A DNA stretch of 64,000 nt. It comes from Candidatus Aminicenantes bacterium. GTDB taxonomy: Bacteria > Acidobacteriota > Aminicenantia > Aminicenantales > UBA4085. This document shows, in pieces, positions 1-10,917 of the stretch. Under the pieces are notes generated by a model. That model was not told the DNA's origin and ran no database searches. It saw only the letters and a list, made by a program, of their open reading frames with translations. Every line of letters begins with the position of its first letter. The first letter of the stretch is position 1. Made by a program: the position numbers and the translations under genes. The stretch spans positions 15,866 through 79,865 of the forward strand of contig CAWANZ010000004.1 of the NCBI GenBank assembly GCA_963783665.1, written 5' to 3'.

Positions 1-124
1 TTTCACCGTCGGCTTCCTGGAACGCCGGCGCCCCTACGATTTCGAATTCAAGGTCGATCGCTTATACGCGATCGGGTCGAAAACCTCTTAATCCGAATAG
101 ACGGTGCGGAAAAGGATGGAAAGT

Positions 125-1465
125 ATGAAAAAGATTGCGCTCATTCTTATCGTCTGCCTGGGACTGGCGGCCGTTCTGGTTTCCGCGGCCGGGCCGAAGC
201 ACCAGGCGGGAGCCGGTCCCCAGGACAAAGAAGAGCTCGGGCGGATCGAACAAGCCATCCGGGCATCGATCGGCTGGGCCAAGAACAAGGACCTCAAGCT
301 TCTGTATGACACGATCGCCAACGATGCGGACTTCCTCGAAGTCCATCCCGAGGGAGGCGTCGTCCGGGGATTCGACGAATTCAAGAAAGCGGAGCGGATC
401 TGGATGAGCCCGAACTTCAAAGCCGTCCGCTTCGAGATCCGCGACCTGCGGATCAAGCTCTCCAAGGCGGGGGACGTCGCCTGGTTTTTCTGCATCCTCG
501 ATGATATGAACGAGTGGAAGGGGCAGCCATCAAACTGGGAAAACACCCGTTGGACCGGCGTTCTCGAAAAAAGGGATGGCCGCTGGGTGACGGTCCAACA
601 GCATTTTTCCGCCGGCCCGGACGCCGGCCCGACGCCGCCGACCGGAGCCGCCTTTCCCGTCCTCTTCTATTCCGGCCGGAACGACAACAAGGACGTCTAC
701 ATCCTCCATCCCGGGGAAAAAGAGCCGCGCAACCTGACCAACAATCCGGCCCAGGATCTCTGCCCGGCGGCCTCGCCCGACGGGAAGTCGGTCCTGTTCC
801 TCAGCGACCGGGACGGCAACATGGAGATTTACAGCATGTCCGTCGACGGAAGCGGCGTCAAACGGCTCACCTCCACTCCCGAGAAAGAGTCACACGCCGA
901 ATTCACCCCCGATGGCAAACAGATCCTGTTTATCCGGGATCTCGAGAAAAAGACCGAGATCTGGATCATGAACGCCGATGGGTCGAACGCGCGGCGTCTG
1001 ACGAACAATGAGGCGCGCGACGAGCGGCCGTTCATGTCTCCCGACCGCTCGAAGATCGTCTTCATGTCCAACCGCGACGGCAATTATGATATTTATACGA
1101 TGGCCGCGGACGGAAGCGGGCAGACCCGACTCACAAACACTCTCGGGCTTGAGATCTTCCCCGCCTGGTCTCCGGACGGAACGAAAATCGCCTACGCGAG
1201 CAAGTTCCGGGCCGGCGGACGAATGGAGGGGATGATCCGGGTGATGAACGCCGACGGGAGCGGCGATTACGCGGTCACCGCGGTCGAGACGCGCGATGAG
1301 AATCCGATGTGGTCTCCCGACGGCCGTCATATCATCCTGCAAAGCGTCCGGGACGGAAACTTCGAAGTCTACCAGGTCAATCTGGACGGCAGCAATCCGG
1401 TCCGCCTTACGAACCACGCGGCCTGGGACGGCTGGGCCTGCTATGTCCCCGTTCCGAAGCGCTGA
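125..1465 (+). CDS. Exported NTF2/SnoaL-like domain fused to TolB-like PD40-repeat beta-propeller
   Basis: Signal peptide MKKIALILIVCLGLAAVLVSA (ATG at 125, in frame with ORF 104). NTF2-like domain ending WTGVLEKRDGRWVTVQQHFS, Pro/Ala linker, then repeated (W/F)SPDG...D.DG...RLT PD40 units. Confidence 0.85.
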   Translation: MKKIALILIVCLGLAAVLVSAAGPKHQAGAGPQDKEELGRIEQAIRASIGWAKNKDLKLLYDTIANDADFLEVHPEGGVVRGFDEFKKAERIWMSPNFKAVRFEIRDLRIKLSKAGDVAWFFCILDDMNEWKGQPSNWENTRWTGVLEKRDGRWVTVQQHFSAGPDAGPTPPTGAAFPVLFYSGRNDNKDVYILHPGEKEPRNLTNNPAQDLCPAASPDGKSVLFLSDRDGNMEIYSMSVDGSGVKRLTSTPEKESHAEFTPDGKQILFIRDLEKKTEIWIMNADGSNARRLTNNEARDERPFMSPDRSKIVFMSNRDGNYDIYTMAADGSGQTRLTNTLGLEIFPAWSPDGTKIAYASKFRAGGRMEGMIRVMNADGSGDYAVTAVETRDENPMWSPDGRHIILQSVRDGNFEVYQVNLDGSNPVRLTNHAAWDGWACYVPVPKR

Positions 1466-1540
1466 AAATGCGGGACCACGACATTCTCACGAACACCGTC
1501 AGGGCGATTCGGGAGCGGATCGCCGGAAAGTGAACCATCC

Positions 1541-2427
1541 ATGAGAGAAGTTTCAAAAAAAACGCGGCTGCCGTTCCGTTGGACGGCCGTTCTCACGCTC
1601 TCGGCGCGATTCTTCTGGCCGGGGAAGCATCGGGTCAAACGCAAGCAGCGATCGCGGGCAAAAAAGCGCCTCTCACCCTGACCTATGTCGCCAACATGGG
1701 AGTGCTGGTCGAAGCGGGCGGGACGAAAGTCCTGATCGACGCCCTGTTCGACAAGCCGAATCCGGCCTACCGGGCTCCGGAGCCTTCGGTTCTGGAAAAT
1801 ATCATCAAAGGCGAGCCCCCGTTCGACGGCGTGAAGCTCGTTTTCGTCACACACAACCATCCGGACCATCTTGCGCCGAGCGTCGCCGTCCGCTTCCTGG
1901 AAGCGCAAACGGAGGCGATGTTCATCGCCCCTGCGGATGCGGTCGCGGAGATGAAAAAAGCCTCAACCGACTGGGCAAAGATCGAGCCCCGGGTCGTTTC
2001 CCTCGATCTCGAGAACGGAGATTTCAGGCGATTGAAAGCGGCGGGAATCCCGATCACCGCCGTCCGCACGCTCCACGGCGGAAGTCCATCGCCGATGAAC
2101 CTGATGTACCTTTTCGAGATCAACGGCCGGAGGATTTTCCACGAGGGGGATTCCCCCGGCAAGCCTGAGATCTTTCGGGGTTTCGGCCTGGAATCGGCCC
2201 CCGTCGACCTGGCCGTTGTCCATTATTGGTTTCCGTTCCGGGCGGACAATGCGAGCTTTTTCCAGGAAGAATTGCGCCCGGATCACATCGCCCTGACCCA
2301 CCTCCCCCTAGAAAACGAAAGCGATTTGCCGGGGAAAGTCGATTTAATCAAACAGTATTACAAGGACATCTTCCTCCTGCTGCCTGGGATGCCGGAAAAA
2401 ACCTTTTTAAAGGCGCCGGTATCATAA
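1541..2427 (+). CDS. Exported MBL-fold metallo-hydrolase (UlaG-like); probable frameshift in the signal peptide
   Basis: LTLTYVANMGVLV...VLIDALF and THNHPDH (HxHxDH), later LHG and FHEGD motifs in ORF 1579-2427. ATG at 1541 gives MREVSKKTRLPFRWTAVLTL in another frame. Confidence 0.75.
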
Positions 2428-2446
2428 AGAAACAAGGCGATTCCAG

Positions 2447-2969
2447 ATGAAAAGACTTGCTCTCTTTGTTTTCATGGGACTGTTGCTGGCCGTACTGGCC
2501 TACTTTTTAATAAAATCGCCCGCACCTCCGGCGCCCAAGACGCGGCTTTCTCCGGTCCAAGCGCATGGAGGCGGAAAAAGACATCGTCGCCGAGACCATC
2601 AGCTCCGTCATCGGCTGGGCCAAGGACAAGGATCTCGATAAATTCTTCAGCTCGATCGCAAACGACGAGGATTACGTCTCCGTCACGCCGAGCGCGCGCA
2701 TCATCAAGCGCTTCGAGGACGTCAAGCAGAACGTCCCCTTCTGGATGAGCCCGGACTTCCAATACGTCCGACATGAGCTTAAAGACCTGGAGATCACCTT
2801 TTCCCGCGGCGGAGACGTGGCCTGGTTTTTCTGCGTCCTCGACGACATCAACACCTACAAGGGCGAGCCGGCCTCCTGGGAGAACGCCCGCTGGACCGGC
2901 GTTGTCGAGAAGCGCGACGGAAAATGGGTCATCGTTTCGCAGCATTTCTCGTTCGCCAAAACAGACTGA
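2447..2969 (+). CDS. Membrane-anchored/exported NTF2/SnoaL-like domain protein (frameshifted)
   Basis: Hydrophobic N-terminus in ORF 2447-2641. The domain in ORF 2565-2969 is closely similar to the N-terminal domain of the 125-1465 gene (IGWAK.KD, WMSP.F, GDVAWFFC.LDD, RWTGV.EKRDG.WV). Confidence 0.75.
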
Positions 2970-3023
2970 TCTCCGGCGGGACGCCGGAAAAATATATTTG
3001 GCCCATTCGGGCCAAGGGAGTTT

Positions 3024-4403
3024 ATGATGATGTTTTCCGGGTGGCGGAAGTTTCTTTTTCTCGCCGTTCTTCTCTCATACGGTTTCGCGGCCGGGGCGGG
3101 CGCCGTAAGCATGCAGAATCCCGGCACTCCCGTGGCCGACGTTTTCGAGGTCATGGCCCTGGCGACCGCCGGGCGGATGGATGCGCTCTGGCCGGGATTC
3201 AAACCTTCGGAAATTCCGGTTCTCGTGTTCGACGGCCGCGACACGTACCTCTTTCATTCGCCGAACATCCCCGACGGATTCATCCGGGTGGAAACACATC
3301 CCGGCGTCTCCCTGTTCAAGGGGCAACAACCTCAAGTCCGGGGCAATTCCATCGTCCGGTTGGGGGAAAACTGGACGGCCACGAGCGTTCTCAGCGCGTC
3401 TTCGCGGAGGACGGGCGAACAGTACGCATTGAAGGACATGGCCGGGATCATCGTCCACGAGCAGTTCCACATCTTTCAAAGAACGCGACATCCCCGCTGG
3501 CGGCAAAACGACGGCCTGCTGCTTCTCTATCCGGAAGAAACGGCCGAGGCGCTGTTGCTGCGGCGAAAAGAAAAAGAAGCCTTTCAACGAGCGGTCGTGT
3601 CCGAGACAAAAAAGGTAATCGTCGGTTGGGCGGCCGCGGCCCTGCTCTGCCGCGCGGAACGGCTGGCCGGACTGCCCGCGCCCTTCGTTCAATACGAGAA
3701 TGAGCTGCAGCGAACCGAAGGGTTGTCCGATTATATCGAGCGCATCGCTCGCGGGTTGGATCCTCTCAATGCCTCCAACATCACCAACGGCATCGCGCCG
3801 GCCGGGATTCGGGACCTCGGCTATGTGGAAGGCCGCTGGATCGCGATGATCCTGGACAATCTACGTCCGGATTGGAAAGCCGTCTTGGAGAAAGATGACA
3901 CCCTCTTTCTGGAAAACATTCTCAGAGAGACCGTGAACGCATCGCCCGGAGAGACACGGTCGTTCGAGGCGGCGGAAATCGAGGCGATGAAGGCGGCGGC
4001 CGAGACCGATTTTTCCGCCTGGCAACAAAAGAAAACGGCAGAGATCGAATCCTATTCCGCCCGGCCCGGATATCGCCTCGAGATCGACGCCTCGGCCCGA
4101 CCCCTGTCCATCAGGATATTCGAGCCCCTGGAAATCGAACTTCTCGAGGACGGCGGGGTCTTCCACCGGATGATCTTCGCGGCCGGAAACGAAACGGGAA
4201 GCCTGCGCATCGCCGATCATCCCTGCCTGACCTGGTTCGATAATTCCCTGAGGGTTACCCGATTGGCCGTCAACGGCTTGAAACAGGCGCCCGAAATCAT
4301 CGAAAGCGAAAAAAAGCTCATCCTGAAATCCGACGGGTGCACGATCGAATTGCCGTTCACGACGTTCAGCGTGAAAGACACGGCCTATCGGATTGTGCTG
4401 TGA
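3024..4403 (+). CDS. Exported hypothetical protein, putative HExxH zinc metallopeptidase
   Basis: Signal peptide; IVHEQFHIFQ followed about 85 aa later by TEGLSDY, a gluzincin-like third-ligand pattern. Confidence 0.55.
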   Translation: MMMFSGWRKFLFLAVLLSYGFAAGAGAVSMQNPGTPVADVFEVMALATAGRMDALWPGFKPSEIPVLVFDGRDTYLFHSPNIPDGFIRVETHPGVSLFKGQQPQVRGNSIVRLGENWTATSVLSASSRRTGEQYALKDMAGIIVHEQFHIFQRTRHPRWRQNDGLLLLYPEETAEALLLRRKEKEAFQRAVVSETKKVIVGWAAAALLCRAERLAGLPAPFVQYENELQRTEGLSDYIERIARGLDPLNASNITNGIAPAGIRDLGYVEGRWIAMILDNLRPDWKAVLEKDDTLFLENILRETVNASPGETRSFEAAEIEAMKAAAETDFSAWQQKKTAEIESYSARPGYRLEIDASARPLSIRIFEPLEIELLEDGGVFHRMIFAAGNETGSLRIADHPCLTWFDNSLRVTRLAVNGLKQAPEIIESEKKLILKSDGCTIELPFTTFSVKDTAYRIVL

Positions 4404-4455
4404 GCAGCCGAGCGATTCTTGTGATCAGGCTCATGGTGGATAAAAAGGAGGTGCG

Positions 4456-7079
4456 ATGAAAAAAACCGCGATCTTTACTGTCTGCCTGTTATTCGCCGCG
4501 ACGTCTGCCTCTCCATCCCTCAGCCAGAAGCCGCCGGGGATGACTCCGGAAGTCTTCGCCCCGGGAGTGGTCTCGCGGGAGGGGATCCAGGTGAAGCTGA
4601 CGATGTCGGCGGACGGGTCGCAGATCCTTTACACTGAGCGGGACCCGGCCACGACCGCCGTGTCATTCATCATCCGGCATCGCAAGGGGGATTCCTGGAG
4701 CGAGCCGGTCGTTCTTCCCTTGGCCCAGGATTACATGGACCTTGAGCCCAGCTTGTGTCCCGACGGGAAGACAATCTTCTTCACCTCCATCAGGCCGCCG
4801 AGCGGCAAAGGCGAGCCGGAAAAATTGCCGGACATCTGGATGACGGAAAAAACAGAAGATCAATGGGGATCACCGGTTCATTTAGGCCCCCCGGTCAATA
4901 CGGGAGCCGCCGACATCGAAGCCCATCCCTTCATCGGGCCCGACGGCGCGCTTTATTTCCTGCGGCAAGTCGAAAAGACGCGCCATCTCGTGCGAGCTGC
5001 GCGCCGGGGCGGCGGATTCGATGAGCCGCAATCTCTTCTCCTCAAGGAAGACTTGTTTGCGGAGCAGTTCAGCGGACCGTGCCTTTCGCCCGACGGCCGG
5101 ATCCTGCTGATGCATTCGCGAAAACCCGGGGGCTTCGGGAATTGGGACCTCTATGTTGCGTTCAAGGACGAATCGGGCGGCTGGAGCGAGTTCAAAAACC
5201 TCGGGCCCGTCATCAATACCGATAAGCAGGAGGCCCACCCTTCGTTTTCACCGGACGGCCGGTATCTGTTCTTCGATCGGGACGGGGACATCTTGTGGAT
5301 TTCGGCGAAGATTCTTTATGAGAAATCCTTCGCCCAAGCGGACATCTTTTTCGGAAAGGCCTCCCCCGGTCCCGAGCCGGTGAAGTTCCTTTCGGAAACC
5401 CTGCATCAAGGGCTTTGCCCCCATGGGCAACTGGCTTTCGCTCCCGATGGGTCGGGCGTTTTCTGGTCGGCGATCGCCCTGGAGGGCCGCCGGCAGACGA
5501 TTTACTGGAGCGCCTTCGACGGGAAAACATTTTCCCCGCCGGTCGTCGCCCCCTTCGCCGCCGCGTCCGGCAACGGCGGGCCCGCCTTCTCCCCCGACGG
5601 CCGGCGTCTATTTTTCAACGTTGAGATTCCCGGCCTTGACGCGACATCTCCGAAAACGATGGCCATCGCTTATGTCGAGAGATCCGGCTCCGGCTGGACC
5701 AAATCCGTGCAGATCGAGTCCACGTCGACACCACGATAACAAAAGGCCAAGTCTCCGTCGCCCGGAGCGGGAATATTTACTTCTCCGGCAGAATTCTCAC
5801 AGAACGGGCACCGGCGATCTTCATTTCCCGCTTCGCCGACGGCAAATATTCACCGCCGGAGAAGCTGACCGGCCCCATCGCCGAAGATGCCCTTTTGATC
5901 GTCGATCCCTGGATCGATCCCGACGAGCATTTCATGCTCCTCTCGTGTCCCCCGGCGGATGGGCCGCCGATGCTGAACGACATCGGAATCAGCCATCGCC
6001 AAACCGACGGAACGTGGGGCAAACCGATCCGACTCGGCGGGGCGGTCAACACCCAAACCTTCGAGCGGTTCGCCTCGCTTTCCCCGGATGGGAAATACCT
6101 CTTCTTCATCCGATCCTCCGGCCAGCAGTTCGTCGGCGACCAAGCTCGTTTTTACTGGGTCGAAACGAAGGATATCCCGGAATTGCAGACGCGAGCTCCC
6201 GAACAGAGCGAGGCAAAACGAGTTTTCCCCGCACTCTCCGGCCCCTACCTCGGCCAGAAGCCGCCGGGGATGACGCCGGAGATTTTCGCCCCGGGGATCG
6301 TCTCCACGAAATTCGGGGAGCTGAACTCGGTTTTCTCGCCGGACGGAAAGGAATTCTATTTCTCCCGCAGGGGAATTCCGGGCCGCCCATCCGTCCTGAT
6401 GGTCACGAAAATGGAAAGCGACCGATGGACCGAGCCGCAGCCGCTCCCCTTCTCCGGGACCTACAGCGATATCGACCTCTTCCTTTGCGCCGACAATGAA
6501 CGTCTGGTCTTTTGCTCTTCCCGCCCGCGCGCGGGCGGCAAGGAAGACCGGATGAATCACGACTTCTGGGTCTCGCGCCGGAACGGCTCCGGTTGGAGCG
6601 AACCGGAGCCCTTTGCCCCCGAAGCGGTCTCGCCCGCCGAGGATTACTTCCCCGTCGTGACCCTCAGTGGAACGCTCTATCTCAATTCCCAGCGCGAGGG
6701 GAGAGGCACGAACGACATTTACGCCTCGAAATATTCAGGCGGGAAATACCTGCCCCCCGAAAAGCTGCCGGCGCCGATCAATACCAGCTTCCGCGAATTC
6801 GACGCCTTCGTCTCCCTCGACGAACAAACGATCATTTTCTCTTCCGAGCGCCCGGGCGGATTCGGCGGAGCGGACATCTATATCAGCTTCCGGGACGGGC
6901 AGGGCAACTGGAGCGAGCCGGCGAACCTGGGACCGGAAGTCAATTCCGAACGTTCCGAATACGGCGCGACCATCTCTCCCGACGGCCGCTATCTCTTTTT
7001 CACCAGCAACAAGGCCGGCAACGAGGATATCTACTGGGTTTCGGCGGAAATCATCGAACGCCTCCGGCCGAAGAAATAA
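4456..7079 (+). CDS. Exported multi-module PD40 (TolB/WD40-like) beta-propeller protein; one frameshift near 5730
   Basis: ORFs 4456-5739 and 5895-7079 join through TKGQVSVARSGNIYFSG read in the second frame. Three modules each begin with a (GPYLG)QKPPGMTPE.FAPG-like leader; many SPDG(R/K)YLFF repeats. Confidence 0.8.
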
Positions 7080-7098
7080 ACGTGGGGAAAGCATTCAA

Positions 7099-7779
7099 AT
7101 GAAGCGGGCGAGGCCAAACATTTGGATGCTTGTATCGCTGGCGGCGCTCCTGTCGGCGGGGATGACGACTGAAGAATCTCAGTCCCTAACGGATTATGAT
7201 GGCAATATCTATCGAACGGTTCGAATCGGTCATCAGATATGGATGGCCGAGAATCTGAAAGTCACTCATTACCGGGATGGGACGCCTATTCCCAATGTCC
7301 CTGATAATGATATCTGGCCCCATCTGAGGACGGGCGCGCTATGCTGGCTGGAAAATGACCCCTCATCATTTAAGGATATCTATGGGGCGCTCTACAATTA
7401 TTTTGCCGTGGTTGATCCTCGAAAGCTATGCCCTTACGGCTGGCACATCCCGACAATCGATGAATGGCTGATCCTGGAAAACGAACTCGGCGGAAAAGAA
7501 GTCGCCGGAGGTAAGATGAAGGACATCGCTTCGAGTCTATGGGAAGCTATTCATCGTGGCGCAAATAACGCCAGCGGTTTTTCGGCCCGTCCCGCAGGCG
7601 GGCGAGGTCGTTTCGGCAGCCCTGGTGAGGCCGGACGCTATGCGACGTGGTGGGCGACGACCGAGCATGATTCCGGCTTCGCTTGGCACTGGGGACTATT
7701 CCCTGACCGTGGGAGTATCCGTCGCAATCCAGGCCACAAAAACAGCGGCTTCTCGGTAAGGTGCGTCAAAGATCAATAA
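7099..7779 (+). CDS. Fibrobacter succinogenes major paralogous (FISUMP) domain protein
   Basis: ATG at 7099 within ORF 6667-7779. Signal peptide, then LTDYDGNIYRTVRIGHQIWMAENLKV, YGALYNYFAV, LCPYGWHIPT and GFSVRCVKD. Confidence 0.9.
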   Translation: MKRARPNIWMLVSLAALLSAGMTTEESQSLTDYDGNIYRTVRIGHQIWMAENLKVTHYRDGTPIPNVPDNDIWPHLRTGALCWLENDPSSFKDIYGALYNYFAVVDPRKLCPYGWHIPTIDEWLILENELGGKEVAGGKMKDIASSLWEAIHRGANNASGFSARPAGGRGRFGSPGEAGRYATWWATTEHDSGFAWHWGLFPDRGSIRRNPGHKNSGFSVRCVKDQ

Positions 7780-7807: not shown

Positions 7808-8528
7808 ATGAAAAAATTAATTCTATTTAGTTGTCTGCTGTTAACAACAATATCAATTTATCCCCAGCAAGCCGGATTTCAAAAACTTACCGGCCCTTAT
7901 CTAGGCCAGGAGCCGCCAGGCGTGACGCCGGAGATTTTCGCCGCGGCGTTCCCCCAGGATGCCAAGGACCGCGTCGCTCCGGAAAACGCCAACGAGGCCC
8001 GGCTCAACCGCCTCCAACCGCCCGACAAGGTCATGGACATCATCGGGGCCGCCCCCGGGATGACGATCGCCGAGATCGGTGCCGGCCAGGGACGCTATGT
8101 CGTCAACCTGGCCAACAGGGTCGGGCCGCAAGGCAAAGTCTACGCCGAGGACATCGACGAAGCATCCCTCCGCCATTGCGCCGAGCGCTGCCGGCGCAAC
8201 GGCTTCCATAACGTCGAGACGATTCTCGGCGGCTTCACCGATCCCAAGCTTCCGGCCGAAGCGTTGGACTTGATCTTCATTATCTCCTCCTACCACCATT
8301 TCGACGATCCGGTCGCTCTGATTGCGGAAAGCCCGGCTCGGCCTGAAGCCGACGGGGCGCCTGGCGATCGCCGAGTGGGTGAAGCGGCCGGGGGAAACGG
8401 GCGAAGGAACCACGCCGGAGGACATGAAATCCCGGATGGAGGAAGCCGGCTTCGTCCTTGAGCGCATCGACAAGACATTCGAGGGCAACCGCATGTATAT
8501 TTATCTCTTCCATCTTGGGACTTTATAA
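7808..8528 (+). CDS. Class I SAM-dependent methyltransferase with signal peptide and PD40-family leader; frameshift near 8330
   Basis: Motif I IAEIGAGQG, motif II YAEDID, LDLIFIISSYHHF. The C-terminus continues in ORF 8322-8528 (LKPTGRLAIAEW...MEEAGF). Confidence 0.8.
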
Positions 8529-8629
8529 GAAGGAACCGGGAAAGCGTCCTCCCTCCGGCGATCATAGAGCAGCCTCCGGCTTGAGCGCTCGAACCGCTTG
8601 GGATAACATATCGAACGGGACAACCGATC

Positions 8630-9571
8630 ATGACAATGGCGCGGCCGGGCGTGCGCGGTTCACAGCGAAAGACCTCCCGGATCAAACCCGCCATCTTCTC
8701 CGCCGCTTTCCTCCTGATGTCCCTTGGCCCCACCGTTGCCCAGGTCCCGAGCGACGGACCGGCCCTTTCTCCCCGGCAGCTTGCCGATAACCTCGCGGCC
8801 AAGAAATATTCCGGACACCGCATCGATCTGGTCTTTTCCAAGGCCGGGCTCCAGGAAGTCCTCGCTTATCTTGAGAAAGCCGGCGGAATTCCCCTCAAGC
8901 TGGATCCGGCGATCAACGACTCGGTGACCTACCGGATGCTCGACATCCCCTGGGACGAAGCCCTGGCGACCGTTCTTTCCGACAACGGCCTTAATTTCAT
9001 GATGAACCTGGACGAAAGCGGGCTCAAGATCGGCCGGGGAGATCGAATCGTCCTGGCCTTCCCGGATGGGAGCCGGGCGAAGGCGGCCCTTTTCCTCTAT
9101 AACAATCTGTTCCGCATCGCCATCGGGATCCTTATCCTGGCGATCATCGCCTCCGGGATTTGGATTTTCGTTCGCCGCCGGGCCCGGGCTGGGACGGCGG
9201 CCAAAAAGCCCCTGATGTCCGCCGAAGTCGCGGAACAGGTAAAAACTGCGCTGACCCGCCTGCTCGAGGAGGAACGGGTTTACCGGGATGACGCGCTCAC
9301 CCTCCAGTCGCTCGCCGGGATGCTGGGCGTCACGCCCCACCGGTTATCCTGGCTCCTCAACGAGGAACTCCGGGTCACTTTCACCTCGCTCATCAACGGC
9401 TATCGCATCGAAGAGGTGAAACGCCGTCTGGCCGATTCTTCATTAAACGGCGAGTCCATTCTCCAGACCGCCATGGAAGCGGGATTCAACTCGAAGGCCT
9501 CGTTCAATCGCGCTTTTAAGCTGAATACCGGGATGACCCCTTCGGAATACAAAAGAAATCTCACCCGCTAG
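8630..9571 (+). CDS. Transmembrane AraC-family regulator with N-terminal STN/secretin-N0-like domain
   Basis: Hydrophobic leader; KKYSGHRIDLVF...LDIPWDEALATVL (PilQ N0/STN-like); TM helix IAIGILILAIIASGIWIFV followed by RRR; AraC HTH LTLQSLA...F..LINGYRIEE...AGFNSKASFNRAFK..TGMTPSEY. Confidence 0.85.
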   Translation: MTMARPGVRGSQRKTSRIKPAIFSAAFLLMSLGPTVAQVPSDGPALSPRQLADNLAAKKYSGHRIDLVFSKAGLQEVLAYLEKAGGIPLKLDPAINDSVTYRMLDIPWDEALATVLSDNGLNFMMNLDESGLKIGRGDRIVLAFPDGSRAKAALFLYNNLFRIAIGILILAIIASGIWIFVRRRARAGTAAKKPLMSAEVAEQVKTALTRLLEEERVYRDDALTLQSLAGMLGVTPHRLSWLLNEELRVTFTSLINGYRIEEVKRRLADSSLNGESILQTAMEAGFNSKASFNRAFKLNTGMTPSEYKRNLTR

Positions 9572-9613
9572 TCCCCTTCTTCCAAAAATCCTCCATTTCC
9601 GCGCCAAGACGAC

Positions 9614-9690
9614 GTCTCAGATTATGAAATGCTACTCTGTTTATTTCTATTTATTATCTACTATTATATAATAATTTTGTCTCAGATTAT
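9614..9690 (+). promoter_or_regulatory. Two copies of direct repeat GTCTCAGATTAT (9614-9625, 9679-9690), candidate activator sites
   Basis: Exact 12-bp repeat, starts 65 bp apart, in AT-rich intergenic DNA; the second copy ends 8 bp before a predicted -35. Confidence 0.5.
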
Positions 9691-9698
9691 CGGCCTTG

Positions 9699-9727
9699 TC
9701 GACAAGCCGGAAAGCCCCCCGTATGAT
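9699..9727 (+). promoter_or_regulatory. sigma70-like promoter for the 9782 gene
   Basis: TCGACA (9699-9704), 17 bp, TATGAT (9722-9727). The -35 lies inside the perfect palindrome CTTGTCGACAAG (9695-9706). Confidence 0.5.
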
Positions 9728-9781
9728 GCCCGCCGTCGGAAATCAATCCGGCCAATTTCATCGAAAGGACTGGTTAAGAAC

Positions 9782-10917
9782 ATGTTAAAGTTGAACAAAA
9801 CGATTTGGCTTGTCGCCTGCTCGCTCGTCACGGTCTTGACGCTTTCCGGACAGGTAATCCTGAAAGACCAACCCGCGAAAGGCGAATGGCAATTTAGTCC
9901 CGAAAAGATCTGGGAAGTCGATAACGCCGGCGGCGAGGCGTTCGGCCGCGTCGCCGAGCTTCTCATAACGGACAAAAACGACGTCTTCCTCCGGGATTTT
10001 AAAGCGAACGTCAGTTATATCTTTGACGCGAACGGGCGGTTCGTAAAGTCATTCGCCCCCCAGGGCAACGGGGAAGGCCAATTGCCCTTCTACCTGAACC
10101 GCTTCCGAGCCGGGGACAAAGTCGTCCTGGCCGCCCCGGACAAGCTCCATTTCTTCACCCGGGACGGCGCGTTCGACCATGCCGCGGAAAACAACCTGAT
10201 GCTTCGCTTTCCCCTCCTTTTCCTCAACGAGAATGAGTTCGTCTACGCTCCCACTCTCCCCCGGTCTCCGATTCATCAGAAAAAGCTCGCGGTTTGGGAC
10301 CTTTCCTCCGGCAAGGAAAAAACGCTCGTGGATTTTTCGGGGTCGGGAGCCGAAGCCGCCACTCCCGCCACGCCTCCGGGCCTCATGTTGATGATCTTCG
10401 GTTTGACCCCGCAAGTTCGCTTGGCCGATGACGGGAATTCGCTCGTCTTCGGCCGCAGCGACGAATACACGATCTACCAGGCCGGCAGGGACGGAGCGAT
10501 CCGGTCGTCGTTCAGTCTCGAACGCAAGAAATCGGCCGCCTCAGCCCGAAGCCAAGCGCCGCCATATCGCCGACACGAGAATTCCCAAGGAACAACAAGA
10601 GCAAATAGTCGCCGCGCTGCCCGGCGAATTGACTCATTTCAGCCATATTGTCGATCAACCGAGGGCTTATTTATGTTTTCGCCGTATCCCAGATCGACGA
10701 AAAAACGACCGTCCAGGACATCGACGTCTTTTCGCCGCGGGGCGAATACCTCTATCGCGGGAAGATCTCTTTCGGCGACCATCTCAAGTTCGGCAGCCCC
10801 TCCAATTTTATCATCAAGGATGAATTCCTCTACGTCATCCTCGAAGACGAGCAGGGCAAGCAAACGCTGGCCAAGTACAGGATCCGGCTGCCGTCATTCG
10901 GGTCATCAAGGACATAA
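9782..10917 (+). CDS. Exported 6-bladed beta-propeller protein; two frameshifts at about 10540-10670
   Basis: ATG 9782 MLKLNKTIWLVACS signal peptide; FAPQGNGEGQLP motif; C-terminal DIDVFSPRGEYLYRG in ORF 10648-10917. Confidence 0.75.

Follow-up and report, generated by a model that had tools for sequence, protein, structure and literature searches.

The gene at positions 8630–9571 of the window analysed here, a stretch of 64,000 nucleotides from contig CAWANZ010000004.1 of a Candidatus Aminicenantes bacterium, raises the question of whether one protein can carry both a secretin-type N0/STN domain and an AraC-type DNA-binding domain on the two sides of a membrane, and which gene such a protein would control. 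An initial annotation of the sequence had listed a leader, an N0-like stretch, a transmembrane (TM) helix with an RRR motif and an AraC domain, and all of these were found in the translated gene. The obtained results support an N0/STN–TM–AraC architecture with high confidence. For the locus as a whole, mechanism included, we favour, with moderate confidence, a single-pass membrane-anchored one-component transcription regulator. The features of the gene and its product are given below, with the evidence for each in brackets.

8630–9571, forward strand: the complete N0/STN–TM–AraC regulator gene, encoding 313 amino acids (uninterrupted open reading frame, full-length homologues, AlphaFold model with a mean predicted local distance difference test score, pLDDT, of 77).
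8630–8746, forward strand: residues 1–39, a basic n-region and a hydrophobic segment ending in TVAQ (hydropathy; least conserved part; model pLDDT below 50).
8798–9049, forward strand: residues 57–140, a secretin-N0/STN domain predicted to be periplasmic (PDB 4ar0, TIGR02515, domain model, Foldseek, invariant columns).
9104–9175, forward strand: residues 159–182, a TM helix, followed by the basic stop-transfer sequence RRRARAGTAAKK (hydropathy, positive-inside count, model, invariant columns).
9275–9565, forward strand: residues 216–312, an AraC/XylS-type DNA-binding domain with two helix-turn-helix motifs (PF12833, PF00165, PDB matches).

The reality of the reading frame was considered first, as an indel error in an error-prone assembly could join a small exported STN protein to a short AraC protein. 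Frameshifts in several neighbouring genes indicate that indels are numerous in the assembly or the genome, and small free-standing STN proteins do exist (P0190 and P0240). A search of 5.8 billion clustered proteins, however, returned ∼60 proteins of 289–344 amino acids that align end to end with the regulator at 42–90% identity, and these came from JGI, ENA, Logan and NCBI assemblies, which represent independent metagenomes and metagenome-assembled genomes. A total of 57 homologues of ∼300–313 amino acids were aligned, four of them 79–90% identical over 100% of the query. Given that end-to-end homologues from independent assemblies share the same length and unbroken architecture, the frame was accepted as real, a chimeric or chance reading frame was ruled out, and we regard an origin by assembly error as negligible. 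More distant members with the same layout were also present (P0127, P0129, P0151, P0153, P0168, P0192 and L095). Among distant members of the family, the identity to the query was 16% in the leader and 65% in both the N0 core and the DNA-binding domain. Many of the weaker matches in the clustered-protein search were Bacteroidota proteins of 370–400 amino acids, in which a TM helix lies between an extracytoplasmic N-terminal region and an HTH_18 domain.

N0/STN domains are protein-docking modules, through which the N0 domain of secretins contacts PilP or GspC HR, and the signalling domain of TonB transducers contacts FecR or PupR. A phmmer search against the PDB sequences matched residues 57–123 of the regulator to the isolated N0 domain of Neisseria PilQ (4ar0, E = 2e-5). 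The segment KKYSGHRIDLVF...VTYRMLDIPWDEALATVL can be aligned position by position to the N0 domain in that entry (FTGRKISLDF...LKDVPWDQALDLV), and the motif YSG..I.L.F....V.WD.AL is common to both. Within the regulator family PWDEAL is invariant, and a family-specific G(F/L)K.xRG hairpin is present as well. When a family profile (A2), made from the N-terminal region of 31 members, was run against the whole PDB, 4ar0 was matched at E = 1.3e-10 and all seven matches were PilQ N0 domains. The first 61 positions of the NCBIfam PilQ model TIGR02515 likewise aligned to residues 62–122 of the regulator (E = 2.4e-4).

The predicted structure agreed with these matches. AlphaFold2, run on A2, gave an N0 domain with a pLDDT of 88 and a predicted template modelling score of 0.78, in which the elements follow the order β-α-β-β-α-β-β (E-H-E-E-H-E-E). 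A Foldseek comparison of this model with the PDB ranked PilQ N0 first (4av2 and 4ar0), with a root-mean-square deviation of 1.6 Å over 75 columns to 4ar0, and a probability of 1.00 was returned for 4av2, 4ar0, 4jtm, 5ngi and 6ovk. The lower matches comprised the FecR-like anti-sigma protein 4m0h, N0 domains of type II and type III secretion system secretins, DotD, PupR (6ovk) and the signalling domains of FoxA, PupB and FpvA. The Pfam STN model (PF07660; SMART SM00965) gave a contrary result: on the regulator itself there was no match at E ≤ 10, so that the gathering score was not reached, and sub-threshold matches were obtained in only 25 of the 57 family members, the best at E = 6.6e-4. As the genuine PilQ N0 domain of the same genome also fell below the Pfam cut-off (22.7 bits versus 28.4), the missing match was attributed to the sensitivity of the model in this lineage. 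The sampled relatives of the domain scored 77–125 bits on Pfam STN and 45–96 bits on the GspD-like N0 model PF21305, far above the cut-offs. The N0/STN identity of residues ∼50–125, which had been put forward as open to refutation, thus agrees with the profile, the predicted fold and the Pfam scores of the relatives, and at the level of sequence and model residues ∼57–140 are confirmed as an N0/STN domain.

The placement of the domain was predicted from the flanking segments. The leader (MTMARPGVRGSQRKTSRIKPAIFSAAFLLMSLGPTVAQV) has a basic n-region, and its residues 18–40 are hydrophobic. Conservation across the family is lowest here (16%), which is usual for signal peptides, and the leader was read as a probable Sec signal peptide; possibly it is an uncleaved signal anchor. 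The periplasmic placement of the N0 domain is the same whether the leader is cleaved or retained. The sole strong TM segment lies at residues ∼159–182, where the Kyte–Doolittle mean over 19 residues reaches 2.8, and is followed by RRRAR. Across the 57 members, the 18 residues after the helix contain on average 5.9 lysines and arginines, compared with 2.6 in the 18 residues before it. The full-length AlphaFold model shows the N0 domain, one long continuous helix at residues 147–187, which includes an invariant FLY motif at 155–157, and the AraC helices. Since a DNA-binding domain must be cytoplasmic and one TM helix separates the two domains, the N0 domain is predicted to be periplasmic and the AraC domain cytoplasmic. 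The extracytoplasmic location, likewise offered earlier as refutable, agrees as a prediction with the single TM helix, the positive-inside bias and the fast-evolving, signal-like leader.

The C-terminal domain was assigned from strong matches. HTH_18 (PF12833) scored 68.2 bits against a cut-off of 33.6 over residues 228–309, covering profile positions 1–79 of 80, and HTH_AraC (PF00165) scored 31.2 bits against 26.6 over residues 274–307; with both Pfam models above their gathering scores, the domain belongs to the AraC/XylS type. AraC-family DNA-binding domains were also matched in the PDB (6swi, E = 2.7e-8; 2k9s, E = 5e-5; 3oou). The cytoplasmic domain with which AraC proteins usually bind their ligand and dimerise is missing from the regulator. 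A Pfam scan of the regulator matched no FecR, FecR_C or anti-sigma model, and neither the secretin channel (PF00263) nor the N1-type domain (PF03958) was found in it, both of which are present in the PilQ protein of the same genome.

Residues 44–170 were compared exhaustively by phmmer with 1.84 billion representative proteins, and 727 relatives were identified. Those examined (P0121–P0269) carry STN/N0 domains of the same type, often in 2–7 tandem copies, together with TPR repeats and in some cases behind them. Further hosts are M23 peptidases, FecR_C and TonB_C proteins, BlaR1-type M56 proteases (often with TonB_C in addition) and a PD40 propeller with the domain inserted into it (P0263), and free-standing exported proteins of ∼105–140 amino acids occur as well. 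Per-domain scores on the A2 profile were 55–123 bits for the more distant N0–TM–AraC proteins, up to 71 bits for the small exported single-domain proteins, 75 bits for a TonB_C protein with an N0 domain, 46–58 bits for the BlaR1-type M56 membrane proteins and at most 50 bits for secretins. Judged from these sequences, the domain type is a docking module of the periplasm that is promiscuous in its hosts and occurs widely beyond secretins and TonB transducers, and the PilQ-only picture in the PDB is partly a sampling effect of what the PDB holds. A specific descent of the domain from PilQ was weakened by the same scores, given that the M56 and small secreted proteins score at least as high as the secretins. 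The premise of the initial annotation that STN domains sit on the outer-membrane protein also proved too narrow: the PupR structure has an STN subdomain on a single-pass inner-membrane sigma regulator (PMC7186176), and besides PupR/FecR there are M56, M23, TonB_C, TPR and PD40 carriers.

These scores bear directly on a coupling to type IV pili, in which the N0 domain would mimic that of PilQ, bind a PilP-type partner or sit beside PilQ, and expression would report pilus assembly. All of the nearest relatives with solved structures are PilQ N0 domains, and the N0 domain of the PilQ protein in the regulator's own genome (4.1 Mb in 10 contigs, 77.5% complete) is 35% identical to residues 57–125 of the regulator, while PilQ proteins of related genomes score 44–52 bits on the family profile. 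A pilM-pilN-pilO-pilP-pilQ operon is present in that genome, with a weak pilP. On the other hand, the M56 STN domains and the small secreted proteins are at least as close to the regulator as the secretin N0 domains are, none of the 11 loci examined has a pil gene linked to the regulator, the regulator is missing from most of the relatives that have PilQ, and the conserved downstream genes encode propellers and not pilus components. PilP or PilQ as a partner is thus favoured only by similarity to solved structures, and we consider sensing of pilus assembly improbable.

The pil operon was located on contig C7 (L101 2287–7443, minus strand), with pilP scoring 19 bits. Its PilQ is read as two overlapping frames, a 297-amino-acid AMIN-like part and a 553-amino-acid N0–N1–secretin part, for which a frameshift may be the cause.

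The initial annotation had also named a TonB-type partner. Cell-surface signalling without a sigma factor would have the STN domain pair with the STN domain of a TonB-dependent transducer and pass the substrate occupancy of the transporter to the promoter. The fold matches to the FecR-like 4m0h, to PupR (6ovk) and to the signalling domains of FoxA, PupB and FpvA are in line with this, STN–STN pairing is documented for PupR with PupB (PMC7186176), and eight TonB-dependent transporters are encoded in the same genome. However, when that genome, at its 77.5% completeness, was searched with Pfam STN and the family profile, the only other N0/STN domains were those of PilQ and of a second, frameshifted copy from a divergent branch of the regulator family, and none of the eight Plug-containing transporter frames had an STN extension. 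A TonB-dependent transporter gene adjoins the regulator in 0 of the 11 loci, and the sequence matches in the PDB are to PilQ N0 only and not to transducer signalling domains. With no STN-bearing transporter found in the genome or in any neighbourhood, a TonB-transducer partner is disfavoured, and signalling of this kind appears very improbable.

The second copy of the regulator family lies on contig C5 at ∼220.3–221.1 kb (L102 1764–2547), where it is interrupted by several frameshifts or stops, with two TGA and two TAA codons in the read-through. The divergent branch is intact in a related genome (G325; L095, 306 amino acids), with the same layout.

The genes and sites next to the regulator were then compared among the 11 distinct loci. 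The elements on which the comparison depends are as follows.

9614–9625, forward strand: the distal box GTCTCAGATTAT, within a ∼25-nucleotide conserved block CGTCTC-N5-ATGAAATGCTACTC (exact 12-nucleotide direct repeat with a 65-nucleotide spacing).
9679–9690, forward strand: the proximal box GTCTCAGATTAT, ending 8 nucleotides upstream of the −35 hexamer (direct repeat; G.C.C-N3-TTAT in seven loci).
9699–9727, forward strand: a sigma-70-like promoter, TCGACA-17-TATGAT, for the propeller gene (consensus scan, conservation).
9782–10917, forward strand: an exported NHL/DUF5128-type six-bladed β-propeller gene, the probable target, with the leader MLKLNKTIWLVAC... (tblastn with the L088 and L090 orthologues).
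8581–8609, forward strand: a promoter-like site of the regulator gene, TTGAGC-17-TAACAT (read from the sequence; leader of only ∼13–20 nucleotides before the ATG).

The next gene on the same strand encodes an exported β-propeller in nine of the 11 loci, usually ∼190–290 nucleotides from the regulator. In five of them (the window, L088/L089, L090, L091 and L103) this is an NHL/DUF5128-type, six-bladed propeller of ∼370 amino acids, 59–79% identical between loci; in the other four it is a PD40 propeller, either alone or fused to an α/β-hydrolase or to ankyrin repeats, and these have homologues in the PD40 genes a short way upstream in the window. The propeller gene of the window is 63–69% identical to the intact L088 and L090 orthologues in tblastn, spread over three frames. 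The intact orthologues score 24.0 bits on DUF5128 (cut-off 22.9) and match the NHL repeats of PDB 6d69. Open reading frame callers stretch the window gene upstream through the AT-rich spacer to the ATG at 9629, which is probably a false start.

The intergenic sequence is conserved together with the regulator. In a consensus scan, TCGACA-17-TATGAT was the best promoter-like match in 8300–9900, agreeing at 10 of 12 positions; its hexamers and 17-nucleotide spacing are kept in L088, L090 and L103, and a homologous form is present in L084, L086 and L105. Both boxes (G.C.C-N3-TTAT), the −35, the 17-nucleotide spacer and the −10 occupy the same positions in seven loci, including PD40-type loci whose regulators are only 54–56% identical, and across these seven the distal box keeps its position in front of two different downstream gene types. 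Because the module travels with the regulator while the type of downstream gene changes, it is probably the operator-promoter of the regulator, as read from sequence conservation. A bipartite half-site with its parts about one helical turn apart, adjoining the −35, fits the monomer sites of AraC/XylS proteins such as MarA, SoxS and XylS, and the position of the proximal box is typical of AraC/XylS-type activator sites. That the adjacent propeller promoter is a target of the regulator is therefore a putative assignment, to which we give slightly better than an even chance.

Upstream of the regulator gene, four loci with 79–100% identical regulators share an almost unvarying block, CCGGCTTGAGCGC.CGA.C.GC.TGGGATA.CATATCG. 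The hexamers TTGAGC-17-TAACAT fell below the threshold of the simple consensus scan, and we infer the promoter from this conservation.

The two unrelated families of downstream propellers suggested that the regulator and its operator-promoter move as a unit before varied cargo genes. Such a self-contained, mobile "dock-and-transcribe" cassette would sense the presence or assembly of an envelope protein through its N0/STN domain and drive its own linked promoter without a kinase, a sigma factor or a protease. Its most plausible partner would be the downstream exported β-propeller, with a PilP- or secretin-type protein as another candidate. We advance this extension as speculative and, on the whole, rather doubtful.

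Several further observations were made on the module. The spacer of ∼50 nucleotides between the boxes (9626–9678) is extremely AT-rich (TTTATTTCTATTTATTATCTACTATTATATAATAATTTT) in a genome of 55–60% GC; it is AT-rich in all NHL-type loci and less so in the PD40-type loci, and may be a bend or an UP-like element. In L091, a deletion at 1478–1520 fuses the distal box region to the propeller gene at about its codon 100, with loss of the proximal box, of the promoter and of the 5′ third of the propeller gene. The only other near-match to the proximal box in the genome, TTATCTCAGATTATC, lies at C5:188760–188774, and the decayed second regulator copy is ∼32 kb away.

The wider neighbourhoods share recurring gene types, namely PD40 propellers, SnoaL-like proteins, MBL-fold hydrolases, ankyrin proteins and an S-adenosylmethionine (SAM) methyltransferase of ∼210 amino acids. 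The regulators are embedded in recurring islands of paralogous exported proteins (window 104–7079; L084–L090 and L103–L106), in which the PD40 propellers share a PGMTPE(I/V)FAPG leader motif and are accompanied by SnoaL-like domains, MBL-fold hydrolases, ankyrin proteins and α/β-hydrolases. The window additionally holds a Fib_succ_major protein (7084–7779), an S41 peptidase and a GH95 protein. The SAM methyltransferase at 7808–8528, just upstream of the regulator, appears to be split into two overlapping frames, 7808–8461 and 8322–8528, the second with the expected C-terminus; an orthologous methyltransferase of ∼210–220 amino acids lies directly upstream of the regulator in L085, where a second copy is found downstream, and one gene further upstream in L104 and L106. 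The apparent frameshifts in the methyltransferase, propeller and PilQ genes suggest either assembly indel errors or ongoing gene decay.

The results can be combined into a mechanism of which four parts are inferred: that the protein inserts into the membrane, that it binds the boxes, in which direction it regulates and what kind of signal it receives. The Sec-type leader would export the N-terminal part, placing an N0/STN domain of ∼85 residues in the periplasm, while the TM helix and the basic stop-transfer would hold the C-terminal AraC domain to the membrane on its cytoplasmic side. The N0/STN domain and the TM helix would most likely replace the missing AraC ligand-binding and dimerisation domain. 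When a partner in the periplasm or the outer membrane docks, or when N0 domains associate with one another, the oligomeric state or the stability of the regulator may then be altered, and this would change the occupancy of the two direct-repeat boxes (GTCTC-N3-TTAT, 65 nucleotides apart); occupancy next to the −35 would in turn activate the adjacent exported β-propeller gene. Linkage favours the downstream propeller and the neighbouring exported proteins as candidate partners. Control of the switch by a partner is the more tentative part of the mechanism, and we place it somewhat short of an even chance.

The N0 domain might instead act as a constitutive tether without ligand sensing, in which it would only dimerise or stabilise the protein, and activity would depend on how much of the protein is present or on regulated proteolysis that frees or destroys the AraC domain. 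AraC-type domains need a dimerisation module in order to occupy two repeats, and there is no cytoplasmic one in the regulator; N0 domains associate with one another in the rings of secretins, and dimers are found in crystals (XcpQ N0, 4ec5 and 4e9j). Control by proteolysis would be as for CadC, TcpP or anti-sigma factors, and TonB transducers are described as protecting anti-sigma factors from proteolysis (PMC11637429). An S41 peptidase gene is also present 1.5 kb downstream of the regulator in the window; it is, however, not conserved in the other loci, and its candidacy as a site-1 protease for the regulator was rejected on this ground. Conservation is equally strong in the N0 core and in the DNA-binding domain, and the core contains the invariant family-specific G(F/L)K.xRG hairpin, which suggests a specific partner and not a generic dimeriser. 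A passive tether is accordingly judged unlikely.

A number of findings weigh against the favoured explanation, a membrane-anchored regulator acting on the adjacent propeller promoter. The topology call rests on hydropathy and charge rules only. A downstream propeller gene is lacking in two of the 11 loci, and that of the window contains two frameshifts, near 10545–10555 and 10650–10660. The distal box is weak in L103, and a search of the window and the genome for other copies of the box gave one site only, with one mismatch, on contig C5, so the motif is essentially unique to the locus and outlines no regulon. Moreover, the regulator was absent from the six other genomes of the genus and the 20 of the family that were searched, with the exception of the divergent 306-amino-acid branch in G325, and because of this absence it is dispensable.

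The family as a whole is small, rare, patchy and confined to uncultured bacteria. Among 301 genomes sampled across the phylum it was found in one, the window's own, and in a contig scan with the full-length alignment the matches among those listed were to the helix-turn-helix part only (residues ∼160–313; Bradyrhizobium, Bacteroidota and others), with no full-length member; the best partial matches among those listed were in Acidobacteriota metagenome-assembled genomes. The biological stakes are correspondingly moderate: the family is small and patchy, and its hosts are uncultured.

Transmembrane transcription regulators are defined as proteins in which a DNA-binding domain and at least one TM region occur together (PMC10269533), and the regulator, with its Pfam DNA-binding domain and predicted TM helix, falls within this definition. 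The census of Demey et al. (2023) comprised 50,302 such proteins, among which HTH_18 was the commonest DNA-binding domain (16,725, or 33%; PMC10269533). STN has no entry in the full table of the other domains of these 50,302 regulators, those that do not bind DNA, where PD40, TPR, dCache and TonB_C are listed (PMC10269533), and a literature search for an STN domain with AraC found no paper linking the two. The initial annotation had not recognised the architecture as a characterised one, and both results bear this out. Pfam-based censuses miss this sensor type, because the STN model is sub-threshold in this lineage.

Characterised STN/N0 signalling reaches the DNA through a pair of an anti-sigma and an extracytoplasmic function (ECF) sigma factor. 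An N0/STN domain fused through one TM helix to an AraC domain would, if the favoured explanation is correct, be the shortest conceivable route from an envelope protein contact to a promoter, and if the cassette with its own mobile promoter also holds, cell-surface signalling would be collapsed into one 313-residue protein. The compact, conserved operator-promoter makes the system easily tested, and it could possibly serve as a minimal transmembrane biosensor scaffold.

Comparison with known systems places the regulator between several of them. The PilQ N0 domain (4ar0, 4av2 and 6ve2) is the best sequence and structure match to its N0 domain; unlike PilQ, the regulator has no AMIN, N1 or secretin domains and no outer-membrane channel, and in the predicted topology the inner membrane is where its N0 domain is anchored. 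The BlaR1-type M56 sensors carry the same STN type, also on an inner-membrane signal-transducing protein and with the STN domain (and TonB_C) in the periplasm. Their output, in contrast, is a membrane metalloprotease that presumably acts on a separate repressor, whereas the regulator has a fused DNA-binding domain; the STN-bearing M56 proteins are also uncharacterised.

FecR and PupR are, like the regulator, single-pass inner-membrane transducers, and the STN subdomain that they carry in the periplasm has the same fold (4m0h and 6ovk; PMC7186176). PupR, however, is built from an N-terminal cytoplasmic anti-sigma domain, a juxtamembrane CJM subdomain and a C-terminal STN domain, and acts through an ECF sigma factor (PMC7186176). 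The regulator runs in the reverse orientation, has no FecR or CJM domain and itself carries the predicted DNA-binding function, and it is therefore not a member of this group. ToxR, CadC and TcpP share with it a bitopic layout with a periplasmic sensor, one TM helix and DNA binding from the membrane, and their activity is modulated by periplasmic protein contacts (PMC5936718). These proteins have an N-terminal cytoplasmic winged-helix domain of the OmpR type and a C-terminal sensor (PMC5936718), whereas the order is reversed in the regulator, its DNA-binding domain is of the AraC type, its exported N-terminal sensor depends on a signal peptide, and the sequences are unrelated. By the membership criterion of PMC5936718 it lies outside the ToxR-like proteins, and it would only work like one.

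The closest class is that of the HTH_18 transmembrane regulators, with which the protein shares a DNA-binding domain, a TM region and the C-terminal position of HTH_18. It differs from them in that its sensor is an N0/STN domain, with no histidine-kinase/receiver, TPR or 7TMR-DISM part, and in its compact length of 313 amino acids. Membrane-anchored AraC-type regulators are a common and almost uncharacterised class, an STN sensor on this class is new, and the regulator thus adds a sensor type to a large group of AraC-type transmembrane proteins.

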